A stretch of DNA of 64,000 nt from Candidatus Iainarchaeum sp. (GCA_016699555.1 CP064981.1:554558-618557), one strand, 5' to 3'; positions 1,087 to 35,361 are shown, numbered from the stretch's first letter. Notes: generated from the letters alone by a model not told the origin. Numbers and translations are program-made.

Positions 1087-3795
1087 ATGGAACCGCAAAA
1101 GCAACAGGACATCACACGTGCTTGGAAGCAGCACCAGGTCTTCGAACCAAAAGAGATCGCGGAAAAAGACAAATACTACGTCACGCAGCCCTATCCCTAT
1201 CCCACTGGGCCGCTGCACGTGGGGCATGGAAGGACGTACACCACTACTGATGTGCTCACGCGCTTCGCACGCATCCAAGGAAAGAACGTACTCTGGCCGA
1301 TGGCCTTCCATGTAACGGGGACGCCCGTTCTTGCGATTGCCGACCAGGTCAAGCGCAAAGATGCGGACGCCATGCAGATGTATCGTGGTTACATCGGCAT
1401 CTATGAAAAAAATCCCGAAAAAGTAGAGCAGATCCTCCACTCGTTCGAGGACCCCAAAAAAATTGTGGCATTCTTCGGGAGCGTCATCGAAAAGGATTTC
1501 GATGCGATGGGTTACTCCATCGATTGGAGAAAACAATTCACGACCATGGATCCCTATTACCAGCAATTCGTCCAGTGGCAATTCCACAAATTCAAGGAAA
1601 AAGGGGCATTGGTAAAAGGAAAATATCCCATCCTCTATTCGGCCGTGGATGGAAATGCTGTGGGAGAAGACGACATCAAGGATGGGGACACTGACAAAGT
1701 CGCCATCACGGAATTCCAACTCATCAAATTTCCGCTCGCAAACGATCCCCACACATTCATCGTCGTCGCGACGCTCCGACCCGACACGCTTTTCGGCATC
1801 ACCAACATCTGGGTCAACCCCTCCTTGGAATACGTCAAAGCCGAAGTCAATGGAGAAAAATGGATCATCGCCAAAAACGCCATCGAAAAACTCAAGCTGC
1901 AACAAAAGACAATCGGCGATATCGCGGCTGTTCCGGCACATGAGTTGGCGCATAAAGACGCATTGCACCCGCTCGATGCGCATATGCACATTCCCATTCT
2001 CCCCACTACTTTCGTCAATGCCGAGAAAGGAACAGGCATTGTATGTTCCGTTCCGGGCCACGCCCCATTCGATTTCATGGCACTCGAAGAAGCCAAGAAA
2101 CTCGGCGATGCGACGGCGCAACGCATCCATCCCAAATACATCATTGCCCACCCCAATGGATTCGAGATGCGCAAATTCTTGGACACTTTCAAGGTCCAGA
2201 GCATGAACGACCGCACCCAATTGCAGCAGGCAACGGAAGCGATCTACAAGATCGAATTCTATGAGTGCCGCACCAATGGCGAAAATGGGCCTCTCTCCAA
2301 TATGTCCGTGCGCGGGGCCAAGGACAAATCGGTCGAGCTGTTGAAGGCCGTCAATCGGTGGGATCGCATCTACGAGCCATCGCGCAAGGCATTGACGCGC
2401 GCAGGGAACCCCGTTGTAGTGGCCATCCTTTCCGACCAATGGTTCTTGGACTACACCTCAAAGGAATGGAAAGAGAAAGCCCATCGCTGTCTCAATCGCA
2501 TGCGCATCTTCCCCGAAAAATACGCCAAGACGCTGCATGACTCCATCGATTGGCTGGAACAGCGCCCGTGCATCCGCAAGCGCGGACTCGGAACCCCTTT
2601 CCCTTTTCTGGGAGGGTGGATGATCGAGCCGTTGTCCGACTCCACGCTCTACATGCTCTTCTACCTCTGCATCGAGACCCTGCGCGAGAATGGAATGAAG
2701 CCTGAGGATTTGGATGAGGCATTCTTCGACGCCGCCATTTTGGGAAAAGCGCTCCCGCAAGGGGATGCACGCAGCGCTGCCGCGCAAGAGATCCATGGGA
2801 AGCTGCAGTACTGGTATCCCAATGACATCCGCCATACCGCGCCCGCACACATCCAGAACCACTCCTCTTTCTGGATCCTCGCGCACACGCTGTTATTGCC
2901 CGAAGAATGGTGGCCACGCGCGGCATCGTTCAATGAGATGATGATCCGGAACGGGCAGAAGATGTCCAAGTCCAAGGGCAACATCATCCCCCTCATCGAC
3001 GCCGTCCAAAAATTCGGCCCGGATTTGATGCGCCTCTACACGATCGCGTCTTCCTCGCTCGAACGAACGGCCGACTGGAAGGATGAGCAAGTCCCGCAAG
3101 TCGAAAACAAACTCAATGAGCTGGAGAAAGTCCTCCGTCAAGGATTGGATTTCATCCGCAAGGGCGGAGCGGACTTCATGATCCAACTGGATGCAGCCAC
3201 GAACACGGCGGTGAGCATGAAGAATACCTCTGCGACTCCGCAACAGTTCTGGCTCAAAGAAAAGATCATGCAGCGCTTGGGAGAAAGCTATGAGGCGTAT
3301 GCGCAGATGGACTACAAGATGGCCGCGCAAAAGGCATTCTTCGAACCACTGAATGACATCAAGCAATTCAAGAAAGTCTTTGCGGAAGACGAGAGCTTTG
3401 CCGTTTCGCTCGTCTTGAAGCGCTGGCTGATCATGATTACGCCCATCGCTCCCTTCCTCGCGGAACAGTTGTGGAAAGAAGCCGGTTTTCCCGGATTCGC
3501 TTCTGCACAACACTTGGAGCAGCCCGAAGGCAAGCCCGCGAAAGAAGTCCAAGAGCGCGTGGATGCGGTCGAGAAGATCTTAGGAGACGTCGAGCGCGTG
3601 CGCAAGCTCGCGAAAGGCAATCCCAAGACGTTGTACATCTATTCCATTGATGCGCAGGAAACGGAATGGATCGAAGCGGCAAAGGCACAAATAGAAAAGT
3701 ATGCCCTGCTGCAGGTCAAGATCAACGACGCCCACGACCCACTCGGGAAAAAAGCCAAAGCGCAGAAAGGAAAAGCTGCGCTTTACTTGGAGTGA
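1087..3795 (+). CDS. leuS: leucyl-tRNA synthetase, archaeal/eukaryal type
   Basis: 902 aa from MEPQKQQDI. HIGH region YPYPTGPLHVGHGRTYTTTDV, KMSKS region NGQKMSKSKGN. Long collinear blocks recalled from archaeal LeuRS (WVNPSLEYVKAEV; SDQWFLDYTSKEWKEK...IDWLEQRPCIRKRGLGTPFP; IEPLSDSTLYM). Confidence 0.95.
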   Translation: MEPQKQQDITRAWKQHQVFEPKEIAEKDKYYVTQPYPYPTGPLHVGHGRTYTTTDVLTRFARIQGKNVLWPMAFHVTGTPVLAIADQVKRKDADAMQMYRGYIGIYEKNPEKVEQILHSFEDPKKIVAFFGSVIEKDFDAMGYSIDWRKQFTTMDPYYQQFVQWQFHKFKEKGALVKGKYPILYSAVDGNAVGEDDIKDGDTDKVAITEFQLIKFPLANDPHTFIVVATLRPDTLFGITNIWVNPSLEYVKAEVNGEKWIIAKNAIEKLKLQQKTIGDIAAVPAHELAHKDALHPLDAHMHIPILPTTFVNAEKGTGIVCSVPGHAPFDFMALEEAKKLGDATAQRIHPKYIIAHPNGFEMRKFLDTFKVQSMNDRTQLQQATEAIYKIEFYECRTNGENGPLSNMSVRGAKDKSVELLKAVNRWDRIYEPSRKALTRAGNPVVVAILSDQWFLDYTSKEWKEKAHRCLNRMRIFPEKYAKTLHDSIDWLEQRPCIRKRGLGTPFPFLGGWMIEPLSDSTLYMLFYLCIETLRENGMKPEDLDEAFFDAAILGKALPQGDARSAAAQEIHGKLQYWYPNDIRHTAPAHIQNHSSFWILAHTLLLPEEWWPRAASFNEMMIRNGQKMSKSKGNIIPLIDAVQKFGPDLMRLYTIASSSLERTADWKDEQVPQVENKLNELEKVLRQGLDFIRKGGADFMIQLDAATNTAVSMKNTSATPQQFWLKEKIMQRLGESYEAYAQMDYKMAAQKAFFEPLNDIKQFKKVFAEDESFAVSLVLKRWLIMITPIAPFLAEQLWKEAGFPGFASAQHLEQPEGKPAKEVQERVDAVEKILGDVERVRKLAKGNPKTLYIYSIDAQETEWIEAAKAQIEKYALLQVKINDAHDPLGKKAKAQKGKAALYLE

Positions 3796-3852
3796 CGATA
3801 GCTATATTTACCCGAAGTTTGTGCTATCGAGAAACTTGCCTGATGGGTTACT

Positions 3853-5199
3853 ATGGTTTCCACTTTTAAGGGATTAGGAAAATACCCGTTTGGGAGATCC
3901 CTGCGGTTTGTGATTGGCCGTACCGGGCATTCGAGGGCCCGTCCCAAAAAATTATCTCCCGCTAATGGCCTGAAGCAGGTATCCGAGGAGTTACAGCGAC
4001 GAATTGATTTGGCCGAAAGAGATGGTAAGAATAAGCGTTTCGTGAAGAGTTGGAAACGCATGCACGTGCTCATCGAAGCCATACGTCAGCTCCCACTTCC
4101 AATTCAGCAACGATTTCCATTCGATGCCACTCATGTATTGGCCGCTAGCGGTTTGACTCATGGGATCGGGAAAAAAGAATTGAGCGAACAGCTCAGCGCG
4201 CTGCGTTACCTGCAACGACATGCTTCACGCCACGGAATCAAGATAGTCAAGGATGTCAATCTAGGCCTGATTACCACCGTGAATCGCGATACCGTGCAAC
4301 GCTTGGATACGTGGATGAGCCGTCAAGCAAAACCCATTCGTGTTGCCGATGCAGTGAATGAATTGCAACTCCCGCGTCACATGGTCTATCACGCGATTAC
4401 CGTGCTTCATCAAATGGGATTGGTCAAACGTACTCGTTTGCGCTCGTCGGGGAAAAATAATGCTATTTATCAATTCACGACGGCGCATCCGGAAAAGAAA
4501 GAAACAGCTGCACAGAAAAAGGAAAAGATCCCACGTGCAAAAAGAGGATCGAAGATGCAATTATGGAATCGGAGACTCAGCGAGACAGAAAGAAATGAGA
4601 TCGACATGTGGCTGAAACGCAATATTGGTCTCGTTCACCACGCCGCCAATAGATTCTATTACAAACATCGGAACTTCTTGGGTCGTATCGGGTATGGTCA
4701 AGAGGATTTACTGGGAGTAGCGTTATTTGCGGTCCAAAAAGCATTCCTTACGTTCGAACCCGAGCGTGGCATCAAGTTTTCTACTTTCGCGTTCAAATGC
4801 ATGCAAAATGAATTAGTTCATCTCGTGCGACGTTACGACTCCGAAAAACGCGGAAAAGATGCCGTTTCTTTGAGTGAAGTGCGTGAATACAAGGGAGCCC
4901 GTACTGGCACGCTGCTCGATCGCATCGTAATCGAACAGGCGAAACCATTACTCTCTGCGGATGCCCGTGCTGCACTGCGCGAGGCCGTTTCTGCTTCGAA
5001 TCTCACGGATATCCAACGCCTGGTAATTGAACGTCGATTCGGATTAGATGGCAAAGCGGCATCGGCGTTACGGGAGATCGGGAAGGAAAGAGGTGTTTCG
5101 GGCGAGCGCATCCGTCAAATAGAATCCGCGGCTCTAACCCGATTGGCCGAGAATCCCAAAATCCGGAAAATTTTTATGGATTATCTAGGGAATGAGTGA
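3853..5199 (+). CDS. sigma-70 family protein (regions 2 and 4) with about 250-aa N-terminal wHTH-like extension; compositionally atypical
   Basis: C-terminal half matches sigma-70 region 2 (NIGLVHHAANRFYY...GQEDLLGVALFAVQKAFLTFEPERGIKFSTFAFKCMQNELV) and region 4.2 HTH (LTDIQRLVIERRFGLDGKAASALREIGKERGVSGERIRQIESAALTRLAE). Arg codons are CGT/CGA/AGA-rich and TTA Leu is frequent, against CGC/CTC dominance in leuS and smc. A tatattta element lies at 3803-3810. Confidence 0.7.
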   Translation: MVSTFKGLGKYPFGRSLRFVIGRTGHSRARPKKLSPANGLKQVSEELQRRIDLAERDGKNKRFVKSWKRMHVLIEAIRQLPLPIQQRFPFDATHVLAASGLTHGIGKKELSEQLSALRYLQRHASRHGIKIVKDVNLGLITTVNRDTVQRLDTWMSRQAKPIRVADAVNELQLPRHMVYHAITVLHQMGLVKRTRLRSSGKNNAIYQFTTAHPEKKETAAQKKEKIPRAKRGSKMQLWNRRLSETERNEIDMWLKRNIGLVHHAANRFYYKHRNFLGRIGYGQEDLLGVALFAVQKAFLTFEPERGIKFSTFAFKCMQNELVHLVRRYDSEKRGKDAVSLSEVREYKGARTGTLLDRIVIEQAKPLLSADARAALREAVSASNLTDIQRLVIERRFGLDGKAASALREIGKERGVSGERIRQIESAALTRLAENPKIRKIFMDYLGNE

Positions 5200-5211: not shown

Positions 5212-6929
5212 CTACATCTCCTGCAGCGTCTCGATGTTCAGGCAGAACATGCCTTCTTCCAGCACGCAATTGACCGCTTTCACGAGTGCCAAGCGGGCGG
5301 ATTCCAATTCCTTATTCTCTTGGATGACGGCCGTCTCGTGGTAATAGGAATTGAACGTGTTCGCGAGATCCAAGATGTACTGCACCAGGATGTGCGGGGA
5401 ATAATGCGCCGTGGAATCAGCGAACACATCCGCTTTTTTTGCGAGCAGATACAGCAATGCCTTTTCTTTTTCCGTTGCTAGTATGTGCGCGAGCGCTTCA
5501 TTGGGCTTCGCATCCGACTTTCGCATGAGCGAGTAGGTGCGCGCCAGTGTGTAGAGCACATACGGCCCGGTCTGTCCGTCGAAGGAAAGGCTTTCCTGGG
5601 GATTGTACTCGATGGGCTTCTTCGCATCCTGGCGCGTCATGAAGAACTTGATGGCGGAAAGCGCGACCACGCGAGCGCGATTCCCTATGACGGACTCGCT
5701 CATCTCGGGATTGCGCTTCAGCAATTCGTCGCGGGCCAAGCGATAGACCTCATGGAATGCTTCGTCGGCATTGAACGCCTCCCCTGCGCGCGAGGACATC
5801 TTTCCCCGCCGGGTTTTTCGATCAGTCCATAAGAGAGGTGATAGCACTGTCGCGCTTGCGGGACTCCCAACAATTGCAGGATCGCGAACAACTGCTGGAA
5901 GTGCAGGTCCTGCTCGCTGCCGACGACATAGATGATCTTGCCCAATTCGGGATAGTCCCTGAAACGCTGCTGCGCGAGATAGATGTCCTGCGTCACATAC
6001 ATCGTCGTGCCGTCCGAGCGCAACACCACCTTATCGGGGAGGCCGAACGACTTCAGCGGGGCGGCGATGGCTCCATTCTCGAGCTTGATGAATTTCCCGC
6101 TTTCATAGGCGGCGAGCGCGATATTTTTTCCCTTGTCATAGATCATGGACTCATAGTAGTTCTTGTCGAACTGGATCCCGAAAAGGCGATAGCTCTGCTG
6201 CACGCCCTCGAACCACCAGGCGTTCATCTTCTCCCATAGTTCGCGTACAGTGGGATCGTCCTGTTCCCAGCGCTGGAGCATGAATTGGGCTTCTTCTTCG
6301 AGCTTGGGATCGGCATCGGCTTTCTGCTTGAACAAGACATAGTATTTCCCCACGAAATAATCTCCCTTCATGTCGATGCTTTGGGGCGTCTCTCCTTTGC
6401 CGAAGCGCTGATAGGCCAGCATGCTCTTGCAGATGTGCACGCCGCGATCGTTAATGATCTGCGCGCGCAACACGCGATGGCCTTGGTGCTCGAGCAAGCG
6501 CGCGATGCTCTCCCCTAAGGCCATATTACGCACGTGTCCGAGGTGCAGGGGCTTATTGGTGTTCGGGGAAACAAATTCTACCATGACCTGCTGCGCATCC
6601 TTTCCGGGGATTTTGGGCGCAGCAACGGCAGAAGCAAGAATATCCTTGTTCATCTGCTTCTCGTCGAGAAAAATATTGATGTAAGGCCCCACACTCTCGA
6701 AGCGGAAATTGTCCGTGGAGAGATTCAGCTCATTCGCCAGCTTTTCCGCATACACGGGGGGCTTTTCCCCTTTGGGAGTAAAGCGAAAAACGGGCAGGGT
6801 GAGGTGTCCGAATTTGGGATCGGTAGGCTGTGAAATGAAACCCACAATGGTCGTCTTTCCGGGGCTATTGCCCAGCAGCAGTCCGTCGACGAGTTCGGCG
6901 ACTCTTTCCTTTGCTTGGGCCAGGGACAT
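5212..6929 (-). CDS. argS: arginyl-tRNA synthetase, reading frame broken by a 1-nt deletion in an A5 (T5 on plus) run near 5814-5818
   Basis: ORF 5718-6929 has the ArgRS catalytic core (FVSPNTNKPLHLGHVRNMALGESIARLLEHQGHRV). ORF 5212-5847, in another frame, has GKMSSRAGE (KMSKS-like) and the DALR anticodon-binding C-terminus ending ...LNIETLQEM. Reading ctgatcgaaaaa(a)cccggcgg with one extra A yields a continuous LIEKTRRGKMSS. Confidence 0.85.
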
Positions 6930-7818
6930 ACCTAAATGATGCGGGCGAATGGAGTTTTAAACCTGCATCCAGGAGATGCGACTCGAGGGCGAATAGGACT
7001 CCCACGACTGCCACCATGACCCCACCCAACAACGTGAGCGGGGGCAAGACCTCATGGAAATAAGCCACGCTGAGGAGGATCGTCCCGATCGTCGTGACGA
7101 TGAGATCCATCATCGAAATCACGTGCACGCGCAGCTTCCCGAGCGCGATGTTGTAGAAGAGGTAGCCGAAGCCCGTGGAGACAACGCCTAATCCTATCAG
7201 CACGGGCCAGTCCAGCGTGGGGACGTTGAACAATCCCTTATCGAAGCCGAAGGGAAGCAGGAAGAGCGAGGCGAATCCCATGAACCAGGCCACGTCTCCC
7301 AGGGAATGGTGCTTATCCGCCTTTCGCGCATACACGGTCATCAATGCATAGCTCGTGCCCGAAATCAACGCCAAGAAATTGCCGATGATGCTCTGTCCCG
7401 TGAAGGGATTGATGAGTGCGATCCCGATAACCCCCAGAATGGTCAGCAACACATTATTGCGCGAGAACTTCTCTCGCAACAAGAACAATGCCGCAAGGGG
7501 TGCAACGAAGACATGCACGTAATTCAAGAAATACACATCCGTGAGCGGCGCCAGCGTCAAAGCGACATTGAATGTGAGCATCGTGAGCGCGAGCAGGAAA
7601 CCCACTATCGCATAGTCGCGCAAATCCCGCAGCGAGACCTTCCAGAATTCCTTGTCGAGGAAATGCGCCACTATGAGTAAGAAAATGAACGCGAAGAAGG
7701 CGCGGTAGAACGAGATGAGTTCGATGGCGATCGTGTCATGCAAGAGGCGCACGAACAATCCGATCGTGAGCAAGCACAGGATCGAGAGGAGCGCAGAGAA
7801 GTAATAGCGTTTGATCAT
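6865..7818 (-). CDS. EamA/DMT-family membrane transporter (about 10 TM helices)
   Basis: Highly hydrophobic 300+ aa ORF with duplicated 5-TM pattern. Start chosen at MIKRYYFSALL (atgatcaaacgc, rc of 7807-7818); the 3' end overlaps the argS start by about 60 nt. Confidence 0.65.
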   Translation of the reverse strand: MIKRYYFSALLSILCLLTIGLFVRLLHDTIAIELISFYRAFFAFIFLLIVAHFLDKEFWKVSLRDLRDYAIVGFLLALTMLTFNVALTLAPLTDVYFLNYVHVFVAPLAALFLLREKFSRNNVLLTILGVIGIALINPFTGQSIIGNFLALISGTSYALMTVYARKADKHHSLGDVAWFMGFASLFLLPFGFDKGLFNVPTLDWPVLIGLGVVSTGFGYLFYNIALGKLRVHVISMMDLIVTTIGTILLSVAYFHEVLPPLTLLGGVMVAVVGVLFALESHLLDAGLKLHSPASFRYVPGPSKGKSRRTRRRTAAGQ

Positions 7819-7883: not shown

Positions 7884-9455
7884 ATGCCGCGTAAAGTGAT
7901 TAAACAACTGCTTCCAGGTCATCCTCATTATTGGGAAGTCGTCATGCTTCCTCCCACGACGCGTCAATTGCGTAAATTCCAGAAGCATGGGCATTTTCTG
8001 ATTGACGTTCCTAAAGGGAAGAAACCCACTCCAGAAGAAGTCGAACACGCGCGCACGCATGGGATCAAAGTCCCCCCGGTCACGGAAGGGGTGCGTGACT
8101 ACGCCCTTGAAGAGTTTTTCAAAAAAAAACTGACCCCCGAGCAAAAATCGGCGGTGTTGGGGGCAATCGAGCGCGAGATTAATCGCGCATACGCCGAAGA
8201 TGGGTCCAAATACCGTACGCGAGTGCCTCATGTAACCCCGATCGACAGCGTGCAATCCATTTTCGCGAATGCGCACATCAGTTCCATTTTCAAGAACACG
8301 ATCGAAGATCCTCGTGCCCGCGAAATCGCCGTAAAAATAGAGAGCGCTATCACGCGCGTAGGGGTCGCGTTCGTGATGCACGAACATCTGCGGGCGAAAG
8401 GCATCCATACGACGCTCCCAGAACTCGTGACCGCAGCCGTACGATTCATGAAAGAGCGTGGTCCGAAAGGAAGCGTCACCGTCGTCTCTCCGGAGTATGT
8501 TGCAGGAGTGGAACGCCAAATCCTCCAGGAGAACCTCGAGAAACGCAAGAAGGAATACGCTGCTCGCATCGCGCAGAACCGACAGGCGCGCGAAAAACTC
8601 CACCAAGTCAGGGAAATGATGGCCAATCTACTCATCCCGCGCGCGGAACGCAAGGAAATATTCCAATTCGCGCGTCAGCAATTCGCTCAAAAGGGGGGAA
8701 TTGACGCCGTCACTATCAACCGTCTTATCTACAAGCGTGCACGCCTGCATGCGATGGGTGCCATCCAAGCGGCAGGACTGAATGGCGATCGCCTCATTGG
8801 AGAAATAGGAGTCGATATGACTCCCGATGGAATGCGCCGTTTGCAGGCATTCGGAGAGATGCTGCGGGCCACTCCTCCTGAAGCCAGGCGTGAACGCATC
8901 GTCGCAATGGCGGAACAGGCGAGGCCCACTCCGAACGCAGTGACTTCTATCCCAATTCATCCGAAAGGCCCCCGGCGCGAAAAGGAAAGACGAAAACCAG
9001 TGCGTCCAGTAAAACCGCCCGTCAAAGCCACGCCTAAAAAACCAGTTGAAAAATTACCAGAAGGATTCAAGGGACTTGTCAACCATGTCGAAAGGGCGCC
9101 CCATGTGACGCATGAGATGTATGTTCGCCTGCGCGATTTGCTTTCTAATGAATCCGCCAAAAAACCAAAACAACAAAATAAGGACCTCATGCGCCGTGCG
9201 ATGCGCATCACGGTTCTTGCATATATCACGACCGAATTCAATATGTCGGGACGTCTGCATGTGGACCACCTCAAGGACAAGTACCGCAATACCCTACACC
9301 CCTTGGTGGACGAATGCGTAGCCAGTCTCGTTCACAACAATTTTTTGGAATATGAACATCATAAAGGACATTTCCGCAATGTCGCCTTGACGGAGTATGC
9401 TAAAGCACAAGGCGTCCTCGAAAAATATAATACCCGCAAAAACCAGCAAAAATGA
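7884..9455 (+). CDS. hypothetical basic protein (523 aa), Lys/Arg/Pro-rich central linker
   Basis: Long uninterrupted ORF with no recognised domain; PxKP-rich stretch KPVRPVKPPVKATPKKPVEK. Confidence 0.5.
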   Translation: MPRKVIKQLLPGHPHYWEVVMLPPTTRQLRKFQKHGHFLIDVPKGKKPTPEEVEHARTHGIKVPPVTEGVRDYALEEFFKKKLTPEQKSAVLGAIEREINRAYAEDGSKYRTRVPHVTPIDSVQSIFANAHISSIFKNTIEDPRAREIAVKIESAITRVGVAFVMHEHLRAKGIHTTLPELVTAAVRFMKERGPKGSVTVVSPEYVAGVERQILQENLEKRKKEYAARIAQNRQAREKLHQVREMMANLLIPRAERKEIFQFARQQFAQKGGIDAVTINRLIYKRARLHAMGAIQAAGLNGDRLIGEIGVDMTPDGMRRLQAFGEMLRATPPEARRERIVAMAEQARPTPNAVTSIPIHPKGPRREKERRKPVRPVKPPVKATPKKPVEKLPEGFKGLVNHVERAPHVTHEMYVRLRDLLSNESAKKPKQQNKDLMRRAMRITVLAYITTEFNMSGRLHVDHLKDKYRNTLHPLVDECVASLVHNNFLEYEHHKGHFRNVALTEYAKAQGVLEKYNTRKNQQK

Positions 9456-9486
9456 TAAACGCGAATCGCAGCGGGAGAAATCCGAA

Positions 9487-9536
9487 GGCCTGTTTCGGCA
9501 GGCCGCCTCGAGAACAGGTGTTGTGGACAACACCTG
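9487..9536 (+). repeat. structured hairpin repeat, family 1, copy D (GC stem with UUUCG-type loop + gcc-tcgagaac + variable hairpin)
   Basis: ggcctgtttcggcaggcc | gcctcgagaac | caggtgttgtggacaacacctg; same architecture as copies at 16800-16852, 23895-23946 and 26513-26565 (rc). Confidence 0.6.
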
Positions 9537-9599
9537 ATGTTTTTTCTTTTTGACTGGTCGTCTAATTTTTCTTTTTTTCCAAAAAAGAAAAAGGAGTGA

Positions 9600-9682
9600 C
9601 GCAGCGGGAGAGATTCGAACTCTCGTAGGATCGCTCCTCTAGCTCTCAAGGCTAGTGCGTTTGACCACTCCGCCACCGCTGC
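9600..9682 (-). tRNA. tRNA-Ser (anticodon UGA), long variable arm, no encoded CCA
   Basis: rc reads GCAGCGG..GCTAG CTTGAGA... wait-free form: acceptor GCAGCGG/CCGCTGC, anticodon stem CTAGC/GCTAG with loop CTTGAGA (anticodon TGA), long variable arm, T-arm GAGAG-TTCGAAT-CTCTC, discriminator G. Confidence 0.85.
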
Positions 9683-9743
9683 AGGATTTCTTGAGTGATA
9701 GTACTACCATTAATCTCCTGGAGATGGGATTAAAAATTAGGGG

Positions 9744-14309: not shown

Positions 14310-14393
14310 GCCGCTGCCGTAAGACATCATTTATATAGCTGAAGGGGTTTGCTCTCTACAAGATGGGCATGGCCCACCAGGAGATGTGTTAAT

Positions 14394-14852
14394 ATGTTTT
14401 CGAGGAGAGGACAGGGTACCACGGAGTACTTGATTATTTTAGCGATTGTGATTGTGATTGCATTGGTTGTCGTAGGTGTTTTGGGCGGATTCGGTTCGCA
14501 AGGAAGCGCCATCAACGCATCCCAAAGCCGATCATACTGGGGAACGGTTCAGCCGCTTGCCGTAACCGATTGGTTGATTTCGCAGACCGGTACGGGAAGC
14601 TCATTGGTTTTCAAGAATTTGACCGCGAACACGATTACGCTGACGGATTTGAATTGGAATGGTGCCGCCATCAATATCACGGATGTCAACATTTCCGCTG
14701 GCGCCACGGCTACCGTCACCAGTACGAGCATGACATGCGGAAGCAATACCGGACAGAATTTTTCGCGAACATTCTCATACACCTACAATACCGCCGATTT
14801 GACGGGATTGAAAGTATATGGCTCCTCCCCCATCGTGGGAAGCTGCCAGTAA
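14394..14852 (+). CDS. type IV pilin (class III signal peptide), tandem paralog 1
   Basis: MFSRRGQGTTEYLIILAIVIVIALVVVGVLGG... followed by a beta-rich domain ending GSCQ. Confidence 0.85.
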   Translation: MFSRRGQGTTEYLIILAIVIVIALVVVGVLGGFGSQGSAINASQSRSYWGTVQPLAVTDWLISQTGTGSSLVFKNLTANTITLTDLNWNGAAINITDVNISAGATATVTSTSMTCGSNTGQNFSRTFSYTYNTADLTGLKVYGSSPIVGSCQ

Positions 14853-14896
14853 TCGCATAACGGATGGAGCGAGTGCTCCATTCCATTTTTTTTTAG

Positions 14897-15367
14897 GTGA
14901 ATGGCATGCAACCAATACGCGCACGCGGGCAGGGTACCACGGAGTACTTGATTATTTTAGCCATTGTGATTGTGATTGCATTGGTTGTCGTAGGTGTTTT
15001 GGGCGGATTCGGTTCGCAGGGGAGTGCAGTTAGTGCCTCGCAGAGCCGATCCTATTGGACGACGCTCCAGCCCTTTGCTCTAATCGATTGGTCGGTTCCC
15101 GCGAGCGGGACAGGGTCTTTAGTGCTCAAGAACGTTTCGACAAATTCTATTACCATTACCGACGTCAATTGGAATAATTCCGCTGTTGACGTTACGGATG
15201 TGACACTGCTAGCCAATCAGACGACCACGATCAGCAGCTCACGCTTCACCTGCAACAATTCGACCGGACAATCGTATGCATTGCAGGTCGGTTTTACCTA
15301 CAGCACTTCCGCCCTTACCGGCATCAAGTTCTATGGGCGCACTCCCTTAGTGGGAAGCTGCCAGTAA
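14897..15367 (+). CDS. type IV pilin (class III signal peptide), tandem paralog 2
   Basis: N-terminus nearly identical to 14394 (RGQGTTEYLIILAIVIVIALVVVGVLGGFGSQGSA); divergent middle; same C-terminal ...VGSCQ. Confidence 0.85.
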   Translation: MNGMQPIRARGQGTTEYLIILAIVIVIALVVVGVLGGFGSQGSAVSASQSRSYWTTLQPFALIDWSVPASGTGSLVLKNVSTNSITITDVNWNNSAVDVTDVTLLANQTTTISSSRFTCNNSTGQSYALQVGFTYSTSALTGIKFYGRTPLVGSCQ

Positions 15368-16447: not shown

Positions 16448-16564
16448 GCAACCACGCAATCGCTTGCGTGCTATAAACCTGCGCCCGAGGGGGTTATGCC
16501 CATTTTTAAACGATTCCCAACCCCATTCTACTATATTCTGATGAATCTTTTCCTGAAAGATTCC

Positions 16565-16636
16565 GGGCAGGTAGCGCAATGGTAGCGCATCCGCTTCGCA
16601 TGCGGAAGGCTGCGGGTTCGAGTCCCGCCCTGTCCA
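16565..16636 (+). tRNA. tRNA-Ala (anticodon CGC), G3:U70 present, no encoded CCA
   Basis: GGGCAGG-TA-GCGC-AATGGTA-GCGC-A-TCCGC-TTCGCAT-GCGGA-AGGCT-GCGGG-TTCGAGT-CCCGC-CCTGTCC-A. Confidence 0.9.
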
Positions 16637-16639
16637 TAC

Positions 16640-16860
16640 ACCGTTCCGTCGGTGTGGTGCGGGAACAGGGATTGCTGCGCAATCCCTGATTTGATGAACC
16701 TTTATCTAAAGGTTCTGGTGCGGTATCCAGGTGCTGCCAGCAGCACCTGTCCTTTCACGCATCTTTCTCAAAGATGCTTCTGGGTCCAGTCCTGTCCATG
16801 GCCGTTTTCGTCCGGCCGCCCCGAGAACGAGTGATTGCCGTTGCAATCACTCCTTTGACC
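16640..16860 (+). repeat. hairpin-dense structured element, family 1 copy A (most complete; six or more stem-loops)
   Basis: Consecutive perfect hairpins: gggattgctgcgcaatccc; gatgaacctttatctaaaggttc; ccaggtgctgccagcagcacctg; gcatctttctcaaagatgc; ggccgttttcgtccggcc; then gccccgagaac + gagtgattgccgttgcaatcactc. Confidence 0.65.
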
Positions 16861-16873
16861 CCATTGTCAAAAA

Positions 16874-17776
16874 CTACTCGTACACCCACTGCGTGGATTG
16901 GATGACGTTGATGTCTTTTCCCATGATGCTCAATGGCAAGTCATATCCTGCGCGCACGGGCGTCGCATCCGCCGCGGTCTGCCAGCGGATCGAATAATCC
17001 ACTTGCAACGGTGTCATATCGCTGCTATCGTATGGTTGGATGCGCAGGCTTCCTCTATTCTCATCGATCGTGCCAAAGGTCAATGCGATATAGGATGAGG
17101 GAGTGGTGTTGAAATCGATGAGATACGTGTAATCATTGCCCACGCTGCCCCATCCTGTGGCGGTAAAGTCGTGCCCGGAATTGGAGTCCTCGAAGCGAAA
17201 ACGGATGTAGGTGTCTCCGCTCGCGTCGAGCGTCCATGGAGTGAGAGTGACGTATTCGCGGTTCGAGTGGATATTGATATCGATGATTTCGGGAAAATTG
17301 CTCGATTGCTCGGAGTAGATAGTAATACGCGACATATCGATGGGTTGCTTCCACACCGTATTATGGTCCGTCCTCCCGATGATATTCAGGTCTTGCACGA
17401 ATGCATTCAAATCCAGCCACGCCACGATATTGCTATCTTGTCCCAATTTTTGTATCTGGGATTGGTATCGAAGGAGATTCGTATACACGTTCAAATCGCT
17501 CGGCAAGCTACCCCGGAGGAAGAGGTTCACGCCTATATCATTCTGATCCACCACCAGAGATTGATTGAGCAAGGCATTCAAGTCCAAGCGCAGATCCGCG
17601 GATAATTGCGCGGCGCGCGTCTGCTGCCAGACCCGATACTCATTGGCGCGCAGCTCGTGCAAATGACTGGCTTGGAGCTGGGCATACACGACGATGTACA
17701 ATGCCAAGATGAACAATGCAAAACTGAGCACAAATCCTTTTTTGTCAGGAGAAGGTGCAGAGGGAAAGGGAATCAT
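16874..17776 (-). CDS. pilin-like protein (class III signal peptide), last gene of minus-strand pilus operon
   Basis: Start at MIPFPSAPSPDKKGFVLSFALFILALYIVV (charged residues - KG - hydrophobic helix); the ATG overlaps the upstream stop (ATGA). Confidence 0.6.
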   Translation of the reverse strand: MIPFPSAPSPDKKGFVLSFALFILALYIVVYAQLQASHLHELRANEYRVWQQTRAAQLSADLRLDLNALLNQSLVVDQNDIGVNLFLRGSLPSDLNVYTNLLRYQSQIQKLGQDSNIVAWLDLNAFVQDLNIIGRTDHNTVWKQPIDMSRITIYSEQSSNFPEIIDINIHSNREYVTLTPWTLDASGDTYIRFRFEDSNSGHDFTATGWGSVGNDYTYLIDFNTTPSSYIALTFGTIDENRGSLRIQPYDSSDMTPLQVDYSIRWQTAADATPVRAGYDLPLSIMGKDINVIQSTQWVYE

Positions 17777-18219
17777 GCCTGATTCACCCACGTCGTCACG
17801 ATGACTTTGTAGAGATTGGCATCCGGCGGGGAGGAGACGATGACGCCATTGCTCGCGCGCTCTTGTATTCCTGTGGCACTCGTGCACGAGGACTTGGAGA
17901 CGACCAACGTGGGGGCATTCGTGTCAAAATCAGGGTATACGCTCACGCTCGCGCACACGTTCGCGGGCCACGAGTCGAGGAAGGAACGGATCTCCGTGGT
18001 GTTGTTGCCGATGACGGCCTTCGGGATCAAGCGCGATTGCTCGAGCGCAATGCCGGCATAGAATGCCTGCTCGCGCAATCGCGTGCGCTGGCCGAAATCG
18101 ATCCCTTGCTGGGAAATGGTCTCGAATGCGATCCCGATCATCATGAACAACACAAACAGCGCCAGCAGCGCATCCACGGAGATGACGAACCCCTTCTGCT
18201 TTTTTTTCAACGATTTCAT
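17773..18219 (-). CDS. pilin-like protein (class III signal peptide)
   Basis: MKSLKKKQKGFVISVDALLALFVLFMMIGIAF. Confidence 0.65.
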   Translation of the reverse strand: MKSLKKKQKGFVISVDALLALFVLFMMIGIAFETISQQGIDFGQRTRLREQAFYAGIALEQSRLIPKAVIGNNTTEIRSFLDSWPANVCASVSVYPDFDTNAPTLVVSKSSCTSATGIQERASNGVIVSSPPDANLYKVIVTTWVNQA

Positions 18220-23797: not shown

Positions 23798-23894
23798 AGC
23801 CCAAAGGACCTTTTTGGGGCTTAAAATGGATTTGCTTGCACGGCAGCTTGTGCCATTTAAAACCTTTAGCGGGGCTTTTTGGTATTATAGACTC

Positions 23895-23972
23895 GCCGCT
23901 TTCGAGCGGTGGCGCCGAGAACGAGGAATTGCCGTTGCAATTCCTCCTTGGATGAACCCTTCTCAAGGGTTC
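23895..23972 (+). repeat. structured hairpin repeat, family 1 copy B, abutting the tRNA-Ser 5' end
   Basis: gccgctttcgagcggt | ggcgccgagaac | gaggaattgccgttgcaattcctc | cttggat | gaacccttctcaagggttc; the last hairpin ends 1 nt before the tRNA. Confidence 0.65.
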
Positions 23973-23973
23973 T

Positions 23974-24057
23974 GCACCGATGGCAGAGTGGTCTAATGCG
24001 CCGGTCTGGAAAGCCGGTCTCCTCACGGAGGCACGAGTTCGAATCTCGTTCGGTGCG
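23974..24057 (+). tRNA. tRNA-Ser (anticodon GGA), long variable arm, no encoded CCA
   Basis: GCACCGA...CCGGT-CTGGAAA-GCCGG...ACGAG-TTCGAAT-CTCGT-TCGGTGC-G. Confidence 0.85.
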
Positions 24058-24191
24058 AAGTTCATCTCATTCTTCTGCGCTTGCGAACACGGATGAATGA
24101 TTGATTCCTATCAGAATAATTGCCCACCCGAAACAGTTCGAGTTTTTCTCTGGAATGCGTCATTAAATAGTTTGGGGGATATCCCACGTAC

Positions 24192-25824: not shown

Positions 25825-25827
25825 CTC

Positions 25828-25853
25828 CTTTTTCTTTTTAAAAAAAGAAAAAG
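25828..25853. terminator. perfect 12-bp A/T inverted repeat (ctttttcttttt-aa-aaaaagaaaaag) immediately 3' of tRNA-Arg
   Basis: Strand-symmetric hairpin flanked by T/A runs. A similar element (tttttctttttttccaaaaaagaaaaagg, 9565-9595) lies 3' of tRNA-Ser(UGA). Candidate oligo-T/hairpin terminators. Confidence 0.5.
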
Positions 25854-25914
25854 TAGTGCGCAGTCAAAAAGAAAAAACAGAAGGTGGTGCGGCACAATAC
25901 CACTTCGCAGGCGC

Positions 25915-26421: not shown

Positions 26422-26565
26422 GAACCCTTGAGAAGCCTTTTTGGGAAAAAGGCTTGCGAAAAACGGTTTTCGCTAACCTTTTCTGAAAAGGTTAAAGGGT
26501 TCATCCAAGGAAGCCAGATGCTGTAAAACAGCACCTGGCCTCGGTATCGCCGGTCGAAAACGGCG
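26422..26565 (-). repeat. structured hairpin repeat, family 1 copy C (reverse orientation) with about 60-nt insertion of three A/T hairpins, in the 5' leader of the ATPase gene
   Basis: rc reads cgccgttttcgaccggcg | ataccgag | gccaggtgctgttttacagcatctggc | ttccttggat | gaaccctt [taaccttttcagaaaaggtta gcgaaaaccgtttttcgc aagcctttttcccaaaaaggctt] ctcaagggttc. Confidence 0.65.
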
Positions 26566-26602: not shown

Positions 26603-29600
26603 ATGGCTGAAGAAAATCCTTCCCCCAATGAAGGACGCGTGCGTAAAATCAAGGGGCATAAGGATCCCTTTGAAGCCGCACTCGAAGACACTTCTACACA
26701 ATCAGGTGCTCCTCTGATACTCGACCTCGGTGAAACTCCTCCCGAAGAAGATGAAACCGCACTCCAAGGACGCATGGCCTCCCGTGCACGCCGAAGGCAG
26801 GCAGCAGAAGATGACGATGGCGACGAGGATGGCGATGACGACGATGGAGAAGGCGACGACGAAGAGGAACCTCCTATTCCGGATGATGAAGAACCCGACG
26901 ACGATGAGGAAGGAAATCCCGAGGATGGGCTCGATGACATCCAGGATGGAGATAATCCCGACGAAGTCACTCCCAGCGTGGACACACGCACACGCTCCCG
27001 CAAGACAAAAGCAGCGCCCGCGGCAGCGGAAGGAGAAGAAGCGGTTGAGCCGGAATCGGAATGGAATGAAGAGCACGACTTGCAGGACTTACTGCACGAA
27101 GAAGGGGTAACCGAAGAAGGAATCGACTCCATCGACGAGCTCCATCCGGGAATGGAAGAAGACGCTGCGGCGAATGAGAACCCAAGCGATGAACCACTGC
27201 CCGAAGACGCCGCACCGCGCAAGAGACAACTCCTGCACGCTAAAACGCTCAGCCCCTTGCACGAGAAACTCAAAGAACAGCTCCTGCTCAAAGCCCGCGC
27301 GCACGAGATGCCTGTCACATCCCCTTCGGTGAAATTGGAATTGCTCGAGCTGCCAGAGAAAAAACAGGCATTCATCGGGAGAAAGAAAAGCATCCTCCAA
27401 AAATCAGGACTCGATGGCGCACTCTATATCGGAAAAGTCCAAGACGATGAAAAGTACGGCGACTATTCGCTCTACCTCGACTCGCTCAACCCCCACGTCG
27501 TATTCATCTGCGGATCCCGCGGAAGCGGAAAGTCGTACTTGTTAGGCGTTATCGCCGAGGAATTGGCGCTGCACAACAAAGACGTCGGCGTGGTCGTCGT
27601 GGACCCCGTGGGGGTATTCTGGTCCATGAAATTCCCCAACAAAGAAGAACGCGAAGTCAAGACGCTCAACGATTTCAATCTCATGCCGCAGGGACTGGAA
27701 AACCTCCGCGTGTTCATTCCCGAAGGCAGCAAGAACGAGACGCCCAAGAACACATATGACGGGCTATTCTCCATTCCCCCTGCCATGCTCACCAGCGAAG
27801 ACTGGGCGCTCACCTTCGGAATGGAACGCTTTTCTCCAACGGGATTGCTATTGGAAAAAGCCCTCAAGAAAGTCGAAACCGGATTCAAAACAATCGAAGG
27901 AGAAAAAGTTCCCGGAAAGAAAAACAAATTCAGCCTGGACGATTTGATCCTGTGCCTGGAAAAGGACTTCGAACTCAACTCCCGCGAACGCGGATACAAA
28001 CCCGATTCCGTGCGCGCGCTCGTCTCGCGCTTTGAAGCCGCCAAGGCATGGGGAATATTTTCCGAGAAAGGGACCCCGCTCAGCGAGATCTCGCGCGAGG
28101 GACAGCTCACGGTCATCGACACCAGCTTCTTGGACGATTCCGTCACCGCACTCGTCATCGGAATTTTGGCAAGAAGATTGCTGGCCGCGCGCAAAGTGCA
28201 AACGCGGAGGGAAGCCGCACAGAAATTCAAATCCGATGAGGCGGATGACCTGCTCGAGACCGAGATACCTCCCACATGGCTGTTCATCGATGAAGCGCAC
28301 ACACTCATCCCCAGCGGGAACGTCAAGACCCCCGCGACGAATGCGATCGTGGAATACGTGAAACAAGGACGCAGGCCCGGGTGCTCGCTCGTGTTCGCGA
28401 CCCAGCAACCCTCTGCCATCGACACGCGCGTGCTGTCGCAGTTGGATGTGATCGTGGCCCACAAACTCATTTTCGACGATGACATCAAGGCCATCATGAA
28501 GCGTACTCCCACCATTATCCCCATGAAATACAAGCACCCCAATTTCCTGAAGACGCTTCCGGTAGGAATCGGTTTGACAGGCGACCGACGCGAAGAGACC
28601 TCGCGCGCATTCGTGCTGAAAGTGCGCCCGCGCATGTCGCAGCACGAAGGAAGAGATGCCGAAACGGGCGAGCACAAGCAACAGCTCTCCGAGAAAGAGG
28701 TCATGAAGCTCGCCATCGAGGTCATCTTCTCCAAGCTCGAGAAAGAAGGGAAATTGGAAAAAGAAGAAGTGGAACAGCTCGTGCAAACCCTCAATTCCAA
28801 GTACCGGAGCAAGATCATGCTATCGGACGTGCTGGATGGCCTCGAGGAAAAGGGCGCGCGCATCGATGCCAAGACCATGGAAGTGATCTCTCCCACGTAC
28901 ATCGAGGTCAAGATACCCGTTCCCGCGGAAAAAGAAGCGACCGCCAAGACTCCCCAGCAGAAGGCACAAGAACTCCAGAAACTCATCGAAGAACCGCAAG
29001 CCGAAGAAGAAGAGACCAGTTTGCGCGCGTTGCCCGTGTCTTTCTCCAACGCTCAGATTATCCAGAAACTCGAAAAGGCAGCGAAGAAGAGCATGTTCGG
29101 ATTCGGCGGGACGCAGGAGAAGCTCCAGGAAGTATCGCTGCACTACAAGCCCATCTATCATGTGGAATACCGCCAATTCACCGGCAAGACCACTTTTATC
29201 CAACGCTCGTGCGATGTGGATGCCGAGAAAGGGGAGTTCGTCCACTACCTCAACAACCAATTCGTCTTATCCAATGGCTTGAGCGAGGTTGGTTCGCTGA
29301 GCAAGCAAGAAGGGCAACTCCTGCATACGATTGCGCGTAAATCCACTACCATCCCACAGCTCGCTTCTCAACTGGACATGAGCGAAAAAGACGTCAAGCG
29401 CGCCTTGACGAAACTCTACGACCAAAAGCTCATCGATGTCACGGGAAGCAAGGAAAAACCAGTGGTGCAGCTCTCCAAGTCCCTCGACTTGCCGTTCTCC
29501 GGAAGCGAAAAAGCGCTATCCTCGCTCGCACCGCTCAAGCTCGTGCACGTGCCCAAGATCAAACCCATTCGCGCACGTATCAGCGCGGATGAATTGAATG

Positions 29601-29752
29601 CGTTGCTTTCCACGCTGTGGCCCAACACCAACATCATGCACGTCTCCGAAATCTATCAACCCGTGATCGAGGCCACGCTCATGAATGCAAAGACAAATGA
29701 ATTCCGCAAGGTCCTATTGGACGGATTCACGGGAAACATTCTTGAAGAGTAG
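26603..29752 (+). CDS. HerA/FtsK-superfamily (DUF87-type) P-loop ATPase with acidic disordered N-terminus and C-terminal wHTH
   Basis: Walker A FICGSRGSGKSYLLG, Walker B WLFIDEAHTLIP, VFATQQP motif. N-terminal 250 aa is D/E-rich (DEDGDDDDGEGDDEEEPPIPDDEEPDDDEE). C-terminal TrmB-like HTH (LLHTIARKSTTIPQLASQLDMSEKDVKRALTKL). TATA-like tacttaaat at 26568-26576 favours ATG 26603 over 26576. Confidence 0.8.
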   Translation: MAEENPSPNEGRVRKIKGHKDPFEAALEDTSTQSGAPLILDLGETPPEEDETALQGRMASRARRRQAAEDDDGDEDGDDDDGEGDDEEEPPIPDDEEPDDDEEGNPEDGLDDIQDGDNPDEVTPSVDTRTRSRKTKAAPAAAEGEEAVEPESEWNEEHDLQDLLHEEGVTEEGIDSIDELHPGMEEDAAANENPSDEPLPEDAAPRKRQLLHAKTLSPLHEKLKEQLLLKARAHEMPVTSPSVKLELLELPEKKQAFIGRKKSILQKSGLDGALYIGKVQDDEKYGDYSLYLDSLNPHVVFICGSRGSGKSYLLGVIAEELALHNKDVGVVVVDPVGVFWSMKFPNKEEREVKTLNDFNLMPQGLENLRVFIPEGSKNETPKNTYDGLFSIPPAMLTSEDWALTFGMERFSPTGLLLEKALKKVETGFKTIEGEKVPGKKNKFSLDDLILCLEKDFELNSRERGYKPDSVRALVSRFEAAKAWGIFSEKGTPLSEISREGQLTVIDTSFLDDSVTALVIGILARRLLAARKVQTRREAAQKFKSDEADDLLETEIPPTWLFIDEAHTLIPSGNVKTPATNAIVEYVKQGRRPGCSLVFATQQPSAIDTRVLSQLDVIVAHKLIFDDDIKAIMKRTPTIIPMKYKHPNFLKTLPVGIGLTGDRREETSRAFVLKVRPRMSQHEGRDAETGEHKQQLSEKEVMKLAIEVIFSKLEKEGKLEKEEVEQLVQTLNSKYRSKIMLSDVLDGLEEKGARIDAKTMEVISPTYIEVKIPVPAEKEATAKTPQQKAQELQKLIEEPQAEEEETSLRALPVSFSNAQIIQKLEKAAKKSMFGFGGTQEKLQEVSLHYKPIYHVEYRQFTGKTTFIQRSCDVDAEKGEFVHYLNNQFVLSNGLSEVGSLSKQEGQLLHTIARKSTTIPQLASQLDMSEKDVKRALTKLYDQKLIDVTGSKEKPVVQLSKSLDLPFSGSEKALSSLAPLKLVHVPKIKPIRARISADELNALLSTLWPNTNIMHVSEIYQPVIEATLMNAKTNEFRKVLLDGFTGNILEE

Positions 29753-31509: not shown

Positions 31510-31555
31510 CCGCACCCTGCGGCTGTGCGGAAGTTAGGGTGTTTTTCAAACACCC
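31509..31555 (+). repeat. bipartite hairpin element, family 2 copy 1, immediately 3' of the CAP-domain gene
   Basis: gccgcaccctgcggc ... gggtgtttttcaaacaccc; second copy at 35307-35353 has an identical first hairpin and a covarying second hairpin. Confidence 0.55.
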
Positions 31556-31612
31556 ACACGCTACTCTACATAATAGTTTAAGAGCTCTTTTCCGCGAGAA
31601 AGAGGTATTGGA

Positions 31613-32380: not shown

Positions 32381-32446
32381 TGTGAGAAGCTGACAGGTAT
32401 TGCCATGCAATACCTGGATTTCGCAGCGGCCAGCCGAAACTGGCCA

Positions 32447-32529
32447 CGCAGTGGGTGGGATTCGAACCCACGAGCCCGTAAAGGCCCGGTTTTCGAGACC
32501 GGTGGATTAGACCGCTTTCCTACCACTGC
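32447..32529 (-). tRNA. tRNA-Ser (anticodon CGA), long variable arm, no encoded CCA
   Basis: rc reads GCAGTGG...CCGGT-CTCGAAA-ACCGG-GCCTTTACGGGCTC-GTGGG-TTCGAAT-CCCAC-CCACTGC-G. Confidence 0.85.
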
Positions 32530-32580
32530 ATAGGGATTGGGGAAAATAACCCATATAAATCCAAAAGGAATTCTCCCTCT

Positions 32581-35353: not shown

Positions 35354-35361
35354 ATACAGAA

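Follow-up and report, generated by a model that had tools for sequence, protein, structure and literature searches.

Mosaic hairpin modules at tRNA gene boundaries of a DPANN archaeon are probably mobile repeats rather than a non-coding RNA gene

A family of short hairpin modules associated with tRNA genes was analyzed in a 64,000 nt stretch of the genome of Candidatus Iainarchaeum sp. (GCA_016699555.1, CP064981.1:554558-618557; hereafter the window). We conclude that the family is real and consists of mosaic, probably mobile repeats rather than a non-coding RNA (ncRNA) gene. A preceding sequence-only reading, made by a model, had described four copies of a structured repeat resembling repetitive extragenic palindromes (REP), each built from a GC-rich first hairpin (HP1), a conserved linker and a second hairpin (HP2). 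The HP1 sequences it quoted were confirmed at 16800, 9487, 23895 and, as reverse complement (rc), 26548-26565, and the hairpins of its copies A and B differ as claimed (TG/CA versus GA/TC). The association with tRNA genes, the occurrence in both orientations and the mosaic make-up, similar to REP and bacterial interspersed mosaic elements (BIME), were likewise borne out. All four copies stand, but core A1, core E, the degenerate copy F and a variant pair (31508-31559/35306-35357) had been overlooked; altogether, the window contains seven cores (A1, A2, B, C, D, E and the degenerate F) in addition to the variant pair at 31508 and 35306.

The host is a DPANN archaeon of the Iainarchaeota/Diapherotrites and not a bacterium: three window proteins show 100% identity to Candidatus Iainarchaeum proteins (locus tags IPJ89_), identical proteins are found in SRR11674035, and the window carries a gene for ribosomal protein L44e, class-III signal peptide (pilin-like) genes and archaeal-type pilus ATPases. 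Many window genes have a TATA-like box approximately 25-30 nt ahead of the ATG, a spacing which, given established promoter geometry, fits leaderless archaeal promoters. Most intergenic gaps in the genome measure 30-100 nt. Relatives were compared at the loci L002, L003, L004, L008, L009, L010, L014, L015 and L016; as a scale of relatedness, a neighboring protein is 85% identical in L009 and 63% in L010.

The core of the family comprises HP1, the linker and HP2, while a third hairpin (HP3) is optional. HP1 has a GC stem of 5-8 bp and a loop holding UUUCG, or UUCCG in a subfamily. The linker reads CGARA, or CGGRA in the UUCCG subfamily; the spacing from the loop motif to the linker start is 11 nt in every one of the 13 strong copies (10-12 nt in weaker copies). 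HP2 is a perfect palindrome of 9-11 bp with a loop of 3-5 nt and a variable sequence, for which only the loose consensus CAGGTATTGC..GCAATACCTG can be given. Many cores run on via (u)uUGAUGAACC into HP3, which has the form GAUGAACC..GGUUC; core and HP3 together form a unit of approximately 75-80 nt in A1, B, C, L002c, L009, L010, L014 and L008. A fourth module consists of an A/T palindrome, which has T-runs on either strand, and of cagtcaaaaagaaaaaaca after it; this module lies in the trailers of the window tRNA-Arg, the window tRNA-Ser(UGA) and the L009 tRNA-Ala, and was also found in L008 and L015. Furthermore, the motif GGTGCGG (or GTGCGG/GCGCGG) recurs directly before hairpins (window 16655, 16717, 25885, 31525 and 35323; L010 at approx. 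11950), and this spacer defines a second linker type beside CCGAGAAC.

Members of the family were recognized by a covariance model (R1) trained on C, D, E, L002c and L004a only. R1 recovers A2 (38.9 bits, E-value 7e-9) and B (33.6 bits), both left out of its training, as well as A1 (36.4 bits), with E-values of about 1e-7 to 1e-9 for the three. A second covariance model detected no more full copies in the window. Independently, a repeat search matched 16801-16858 to 23895-23952 with 81% identity over 58 nt. The short motifs taken singly show nothing of this: GCCNCGAGAAC with one mismatch was found 5 times in the window versus 5.1 expected, which is no excess over chance, and GGATGAACC 27 times versus 18.9 expected, which alone was judged no better than chance. 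Thus, the combined architecture is significant although the short motifs alone are not. Measured against dinucleotide shuffles, the fold z-score is −6.4 for the whole tRNA-Ala trailer (16637-16873) and −3.8 to −5.2 for single units. When all intergenic regions of the window were scanned, only element-bearing regions stood out and most others were near 0; of the five regions with the most structure, four are in contact with a tRNA gene. In Rfam, five tRNAs alone passed the gathering score, and no family covers the elements up to an E-value of 5, except for two sX4 matches below threshold (20.8 and 20.5 bits, E-values 3.9-4.6), which span tRNA-Ser(UGA) and tRNA-Ser(CGA) and touch the adjoining modules. 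A pattern scan of metagenomes gave one true copy (L004, Hainich groundwater); the match L005 was rejected as chance, lying within a GC-rich coding region.

In 13 full copies, 95% of the stem cells are paired and 15 of the 20 pairs are altered on both sides, which was matched by none of 500 shuffles, and slid controls reached 35-44% paired cells. The alignment was fitted to the hairpins, inflating this result somewhat; this caveat is tempered because the hairpins are obvious in each sequence alone. For HP3, covariation was read by eye, since the MAFFT alignment misplaced its 3′ arms, and double changes were found at three stem positions (1, G-C/A-U/C-G; 4, C-G/U-A; 6, U-A/C-G). Hence, the modular family with compensatory stem changes is real, as had been proposed. 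The further argument that such changes indicate selection on RNA or single-stranded DNA structure does not hold by itself. The stems contain 181 Watson-Crick, 3 G-U and 4 A-C cells and are perfect DNA palindromes without strand asymmetry, so that covariation alone is no proof of RNA selection. Selection on RNA only would not lead to this pattern, which fits a constraint at the DNA level or a use of both strands.

Stems which are nearly all Watson-Crick despite divergence, and which cluster at highly expressed genes (tRNAs, the L44e gene), could also be a mutational by-product, generated and maintained in perfect form through intrastrand template switching where transcription is high, and having neither mobility nor function. 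We deem this extremely unlikely, as it leaves unexplained the conserved unpaired motifs (UUUCG loop, CGAGAAC linker and 11-nt spacing) and, equally, the module order, the 170-nt collinear homology between tRNA trailers and the tRNA-end repeats described below.

The unpaired motifs themselves are complementary, so that loop and linker may form base pairs (UUUCG with CGAGA or CGAAA; UUCCG with CGGGA or CGGAA). In this helix, which lies outside the model, 94-95% of the cells are paired versus 30-67% in slid controls. At the central pair of this helix, U-A gives way to C-G in three copies only; these copies form one subfamily, and hence the change probably represents one evolutionary event. An H-type pseudoknot between the HP1 loop and the linker is suggested.

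Comparison of the loci shows that modules are inserted, deleted, inverted and shuffled between close relatives. At tRNA-Ser(GGA), the promoter (..catttaaaacc..) is kept in four genomes (window, L014, L015, L016). L016 has this promoter and the tRNA with zero modules, whereas the window has one unit (B). In L014, the same unit is followed by a repeat of the tRNA’s initial 20 nt (17/20), a hairpin insert of 43 nt, the real tRNA and a downstream core, and L015 has other hairpins, a core in inverted orientation directly against the tRNA 5′ end, another core downstream, and an A/T palindrome. An essential tRNA-processing module, one of the functions considered earlier, is contradicted by L016, in which the same tRNA and promoter do without. 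At tRNA-Ser(UGA), about 190 nt of modules separate the conserved promoter and the tRNA in L010, compared to 45 nt in the window. The tRNA-Ala trailer is 237 nt long in the window, approximately 105 nt in L009 and approximately 125 nt in L010, with different module orders; tRNA-Ala itself shows no difference between the window and L009, and in L010 two of its positions are changed. L009 has a module cagggattgc..gcaatccctg and an HP3 upstream of tRNA-Ala and a trailer made of an A/T palindrome and one hairpin; the L010 trailer is different again, but opens with a UUCCG-type core. In the window, the order within 16637-16873 is A1, HP3, a partial core, a hairpin, a repeat of the tRNA-Ala end, A2 and the stop codon of the convergent gene. 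Copy A, for which a stable ncRNA of about 220 nt had been envisaged, is a composite and not a single conserved RNA of that size, and the very different trailer in L009, the closest relative (85% for the neighboring protein), speaks against such an RNA too.

Turnover also occurs away from tRNA genes. The element upstream of the HerA (DUF87) ATPase gene is common to the window (copy C) and L002, and the promoter boxes around it are identical; between the two, the HP1 stem is compensated and HP2 is different. The outer HP3 stem of the window copy (26422-26429/26495-26502) encloses a 62-nt insertion of three hairpins (26433-26494). Contrary to its earlier placement in the leader of the HerA gene, copy C is located upstream of the TATA-like boxes of both divergent genes. 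3′ of a CAP-domain gene, L002 has a canonical core and the window a variant element. In L009, a two-unit array of 144-165 nt is found inside the 5′ end of a class-III-signal-peptide (pilin-like) gene (3697-3860), antisense and in frame, and the open reading frame (ORF) stays open; at most 21 nt are present at this site in the window (approx. 18198-18219) and in L010. HP1 and linker of the array are nearly identical to those of the L014 tRNA-Ser(GGA) unit, a similarity which suggests copying from site to site. The array may be translated as an N-terminal extension that is removed by prepilin peptidase.

Since many modules adjoin tRNA genes, 24 tRNA genes were surveyed for repeats of their own ends, and two 20-mer framings were tested against the local background. 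Six of them have a significant repeat of approximately 20 nt of their own end, with 43-195 nt of hairpin modules between. Five repeats copy the 3′ end (window Ala, 15/20; window Ser(UGA), 16-17/20; L008 Gln, 16/20; L008 Ala, 15/20; L008 Ser(CGA), 19/20) and one the 5′ end (L014 Ser(GGA), 17/20). In the better framing, p is ≤0.007 for each of the six; in the second framing, it is 0.010 for the window Ser(UGA) and 0.017 for the window Ala. All five 3′ repeats begin in the T-loop. The L008 trailers of tRNA-Ala and tRNA-Ser(CGA), 9 kb apart, have about 170 nt of collinear modules in common (82-84%), each with its own tRNA’s repeat right after the A/T palindrome, and in the window Ser(UGA) insert the module order is opposite to that of the L008 inserts. 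The junction usually falls at the foot of HP1: at least 11 times, this foot is within 0-3 nt of the end of a tRNA or of a repeat of such an end (A1, A2, D, E, L010, L003, L014, two in L015 and two in L008), and HP3 ends 1 nt before tRNA position +1 at the window Ala and Ser(GGA) genes, L009, L010, L008 and L014. Behind the repeats, another core follows in the window (A2) and in L008 (rc 16787-16853), which is what serial insertion at one point would leave.

Three further observations concern tRNA ends. All three tRNA genes of the 24-kb locus L008 (Ala, Ser(CGA) and Gln) have a mini-insert plus a repeat of their own 3′ end (7954-8260 and 16750-17064; 7195-7310). A module tcagccgttg..aaggttgattcg..ccttgtccccgggg occurs three times in L008 and resembles a decayed tRNA-Ala T-arm and 3′ end. 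In L009, an HP2-type hairpin (5387-5412, cagggattgc..gcaatccctg) matches the first 20 nt of tRNA-Ala at 14 of 20 positions (p approx. 0.03, uncorrected for multiple tests), which may be coincidental or may hint at an origin of HP2 palindromes from tRNA 5′ segments.

Tyrosine-integrase attachment (att) sites have a T-loop sublocation, as reportedly described by Williams in 2002, and all five 3′ repeats span the T-loop to the 3′ end. The inserts might therefore be decayed remnants of virus or plasmid integrations into tRNA genes, whose coding parts were deleted and whose att-proximal arms are the hairpins. Recurrence of the same trailer modules at different tRNAs agrees with this, as does the fact that partial tRNA copies from integration are common in archaea (PMC9897764). 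Archaeal tRNA-targeting integrative elements (tyrosine recombinases), too, are bracketed by a direct repeat that covers the tRNA from its T-loop to its 3′ end, and one element family is seen at several tRNAs. However, documented archaeal integrated elements measure 9-23 kb (PMC9897764), whereas all six inserts are only 43-195 nt long and consist of hairpin modules, with neither an integrase gene nor kilobase cargo between the repeats. They are gene-free and occur in both orientations, the window Ser(UGA) insert being inverted relative to those in L008; one case duplicates a tRNA 5′ end; and modules are found off tRNAs as well (upstream of HerA, downstream of L44e and inside the pilin gene). 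No integrase was found in the window, and a scan of viral contigs gave no contig with the element, its lone match being a chance match in a coding region. We consider an origin from such integrations unlikely.

The explanation we favor, held with about even confidence, sees the modules as miniature, non-autonomous elements of a mobile or mosaic kind, whose copying and insertion take place at the DNA level, preferentially at tRNA gene boundaries. HP1, with its loop and the linker, would then be the end structure recognized by a recombinase or transposase that acts in trans and has its gene elsewhere. The tRNA flanks could be true targets, or safe havens and the only sites where insertions are tolerated; RNase P and RNase Z remove tRNA leaders and trailers, and such flanks should for this reason be tolerant of inserts. 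Some copies may have been co-opted as 3′-end or insulator hairpins.

Several results weigh against mobility. No transposase, integrase or casposase was detected among the 50 window ORFs, and the elements show no terminal inverted repeats or short target duplications. The window copies have diverged from one another (81% for the best pair) and give no indication of very recent transposition in this stretch. Cores are retained at corresponding sites where neighboring proteins share only 60-63% identity, namely in the tRNA-Ala trailer of L010 and L003 and in the L44e downstream region of L008. Our own count over the loci read puts about 18 cores in sense and 3 in antisense orientation to local transcription, a bias that suggests selection at the RNA level, and a conserved U-G in the proposed loop-linker helix is strand-specific. 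Because of the orientation bias, the site persistence and the strand-specific U-G, use as RNA 3′-end or insulator elements is a serious rival.

According to this rival, the modules are RNA parts that function in the leaders and trailers of pre-tRNAs and at the 3′ ends of some mRNAs, i.e., hairpins with a 5′-proximal H-type pseudoknot serving as 3′-end, insulator or exonuclease-blocking structures of highly transcribed genes in a very compact genome, and their turnover would reflect weak sequence constraint. Apart from the strong orientation bias relative to transcription, it would account for HP1 starting 0-3 nt after the discriminator base (A1, E, L010-Ala, L003-Ala, L014, L015), for HP3 ending 1 nt before tRNA +1 at several loci, for the 94-95% pairing of the loop-linker helix with its UA-to-CG double change in three copies, and for elements kept at orthologous sites in distant relatives. 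The T-runs behind copy D and behind the copy at L002 6907 also fit. A GC hairpin with a T-run, as in intrinsic terminators, is present in D (9515-9536 plus T6), in L002 (6907-6971) and on the minus strand at 35306-35322 (L44e side); in contrast, no T-run follows A1, A2, B, C or E, and several copies are upstream of genes or tRNAs. Termination in archaea is generally driven by oligo-T and not by hairpins, which speaks against a hairpin role in it. Moreover, L016 has no module at tRNA-Ser(GGA), most gene 3′ ends in the window are unstructured, the stems are almost without G-U while A-C mismatches are as frequent, copy C is upstream of both neighboring TATA-like boxes, and the L009 array is antisense within a coding region. 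We find such an RNA function somewhat improbable, if the strongest of the alternatives.

Very unlikely, in our view, is a family of small RNAs of about 75-80 nt (pseudoknot plus two hairpins) which borrow tRNA transcription and are freed by RNase Z at the 5′ and RNase P at the 3′ side. A unit is indeed bounded on one side by a tRNA 3′ end and on the other by a tRNA 5′ end (unit B) or by more modules and a tRNA 3′-end repeat (window Ala), and A1, B, L009, L010 and L014 agree in size (74-80 nt) and architecture. Nevertheless, the unit is not conserved at orthologous tRNAs, its sequence is free to vary outside short motifs, perfect hairpins without internal loops are atypical of functional small RNAs, and neither an Rfam match nor, by eye, C/D-box features were found. 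Archaeal C/D-box sRNAs were rejected on inspection by eye: UGAUGA/GGAUGA precedes HP3, but CUGG, CUGC or CGGG stands on its 3′ side instead of a box D (CUGA). In addition, the GA in HP3 lies within a Watson-Crick stem, and C/D-box, K-turn and H/ACA readings of HP3 fail, again by eye, on an absent box D equivalent and on stems without internal loops.

Among known systems, REP, BIME and REPINs are the closest analogs in behavior. Like REP/BIME, the modules are short, GC-rich extragenic palindromes with compensatory stem changes and a conserved unpaired tag beside the hairpin, located in intergenic regions and combined with other motifs in a mosaic manner. Membership fails on the defining tag, which is here the loop motif plus a 3′ linker instead of a 5′ GTAG/CGTC; at the 5′ foot of HP1, the flanks vary (ccaT, gacT, tta, gaa, cta) and GTAG/CGTC is absent. 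The modules further differ from REP/BIME in their archaeal host, in perfect stems, and in copies which are mostly in tandem and of the same orientation instead of alternating. REP/BIME number ≥100 copies per genome; the 64-kb window has seven cores and two variants. A link to tRNA ends and tRNA-end repeats are not REP features either. With an archaeal host and no GTAG/CGTC tag, the earlier idea of REP mobilized by RAYT (a Y1 HUH transposase) was not upheld: a Pfam scan of the 50 window ORFs revealed no RAYT.

MITEs (miniature inverted-repeat transposable elements) and palindrome-associated elements derived from IS200/IS605 are likewise small and non-autonomous, have hairpin ends with conserved single-stranded bases and occur in archaea. 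In contrast, the modules have no terminal inverted repeats, tetranucleotide target or flanking TnpA/TnpB, and the Rfam IS605 and HEARO-type families gave no match. A MITE structure was not found, as the unit ends, HP1 and HP3, are unrelated and the flanking repeats, where present, are about 20 nt of tRNA. A possible likeness is to integrons, whose attC sites keep their structure while the sequence varies and are imperfect palindromes folded as single strands, with conserved short boxes at the hairpin foot. Here, there is no cassette array, IntI or R/L box consensus. Extragenic palindromes in archaea have been reported by general surveys (PMC12306157), and no description of tRNA-boundary hairpin modules in DPANN archaea was found in the literature.

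We tentatively propose that the modules represent a class of non-coding DPANN mobile elements of 45-200 nt, which would insert exactly at tRNA gene ends, copy approximately 20 nt of the tRNA end, be recognized via a terminal pseudoknotted hairpin and be harmless through trimming by RNase P and RNase Z. With the same reserve, such a class could play in archaea the part of REPINs or MITEs, with specificity for tRNA flanks. Much work exists on small non-autonomous repeats of bacteria but little on those of archaea; literature searches returned none for DPANN lineages, whose genomes (approx. 1 Mb) are thought to leave little space for selfish DNA. If the modules move, they follow a new target logic, i.e., the exact 5′ and 3′ boundaries of tRNA genes, pointing to a recombinase. 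They give rise to decayed tRNA fragments, can lie in frame within a gene (L009) and turn tRNA flanks into hypervariable markers with which strains can be typed. Should they work at the RNA level instead, hairpin or pseudoknot 3′-end elements of this sort would be rarities in archaeal transcription.

Table 1. Hairpin modules and associated tRNA features in the window (bit scores from covariance models where indicated).
Feature	Position	Strand	Remarks
Direct repeat of tRNA-Ser(UGA) 3′ end	9465-9486	-	16-17/20 identical; abuts HP1 of D
Core D	9487-9536	+	76.8 bits (R1, D in training set); T-run next; HP1 9487-9504, UUUCG 9493-9497, CGAGA 9509-9513, HP2 9515-9536
A/T palindrome module	9566-9592	.	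T-runs on both strands; homologous to tRNA-Arg trailer
tRNA-Ser(UGA)	9598-9683		Adjoins A/T palindrome 9566-9592
HP3-type hairpin GAATCTTT-TCCTG-AAAGATTC	16543-16563	+	Ends 1 nt before tRNA-Ala +1
tRNA-Ala(CGC)	16565-16636	+	No encoded CCA
Core A1	16637-16688	+	Directly after discriminator base; 36.4 bits (R1), 66.5 bits (second model); HP1 16638-16655, UUCCG loop 16644-16648, CGGGA linker 16660-16664, HP2 16666-16688
HP3 hairpin uuUGAUGAACCUUU-AUCU-AAAGGUUC	16696-16715	+	
Partial core	16717-16749	+	GGTGCGGTAT linker and hairpin 16728-16749; 20.2 bits
Extra hairpin gcatcttt-ctc-aaagatgc	16759-16777	+	
Decayed direct repeat of tRNA-Ala 3′ end	16779-16798	+	T-loop to discriminator; 15/20 identical
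Core A2	16799-16852	+	Copy A of the sequence-only reading; HP1 16800-16817, UUUCG 16806-16810, CGAGA 16822-16826, HP2 16829-16852
Full unit B	23893-23972	+	Ends 1 nt before tRNA-Ser(GGA); HP1 23894-23911, CGAGA 23916-23920, HP2 23923-23946, HP3 23954-23972
tRNA-Ser(GGA)	23973-24058	+	
tRNA-Arg trailer	25826-25889	+	A/T palindrome 25828-25853, then cagtcaaaaagaaaaaaca, then hairpin
Unit C	26422-26565	-	Between two divergent TATA-like boxes; orthologue in L002; HP1 26548-26565, CGAGG linker rc 26539-26543, HP2 26513-26539
Variant two-hairpin element (HP1, GTGCGGAAGTT, HP2)	31508-31559	+	Canonical core at same position in L002
Core E	32394-32445	-	0 nt after tRNA-Ser(CGA) (32446-32530); 71.3 bits (R1, E in training set); HP1 32428-32445, CGAAA linker rc 32419-32423, HP2 32394-32416
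Second variant copy	35306-35357	+	85% identical to first; downstream of L44e gene
Degenerate copy F	57593-57665	+	HP1 loop and HP2 decayed; beside TATA-like box; 28.7 bits

The trailers of tRNA-Arg and tRNA-Ser(UGA) are built from the same module set (Table 1), and at the place downstream of the L44e gene taken by the second variant copy, L008 holds a related pair. Three candidate features were rejected. A pseudo-tRNA at 16717-16798 was dismissed, as its apparent 5′ end, GGTGCGG, is the recurrent linker motif (16655, 25885, L010), and tRNA similarity within this region is limited to the 3′ 20 nt; a split or permuted tRNA or a tRNA minihelix was discarded since acceptor pairing is impossible. 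Near copy F, a TpiA gene at 57783 was discounted, its frame containing five stops.

Finally, some neighboring genes deserve mention. HerA/DUF87 ATPase homologs contain an intein with a LAGLIDADG endonuclease in several relatives (L008 10001-14314; P0016, P0017, P0052 and others), whereas the window HerA (26603-29752) is without an intein. Tandem pilin-like paralogs are present at 14349-15367, with a 188-nt repeat (82%) and a 74-nt repeat (70%). The product of 3853-5199 has weak Pfam matches to Sigma70 regions 2 and 4, unexpected in an archaeal protein. A near-complete bacterial-type methylerythritol phosphate (MEP) isoprenoid cluster covers 45350-56161 (LytB/IspH 45350-46465, Dxr 48949-50157, IspD 50514-51227, Dxs 52964-54832, GcpE/IspG 54908-56161), with a GHMP kinase (44030-44923) and a geranylgeranyl reductase (46531-47781) as neighbors. 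Since archaea normally use the mevalonate route, this cluster was probably acquired by horizontal transfer.

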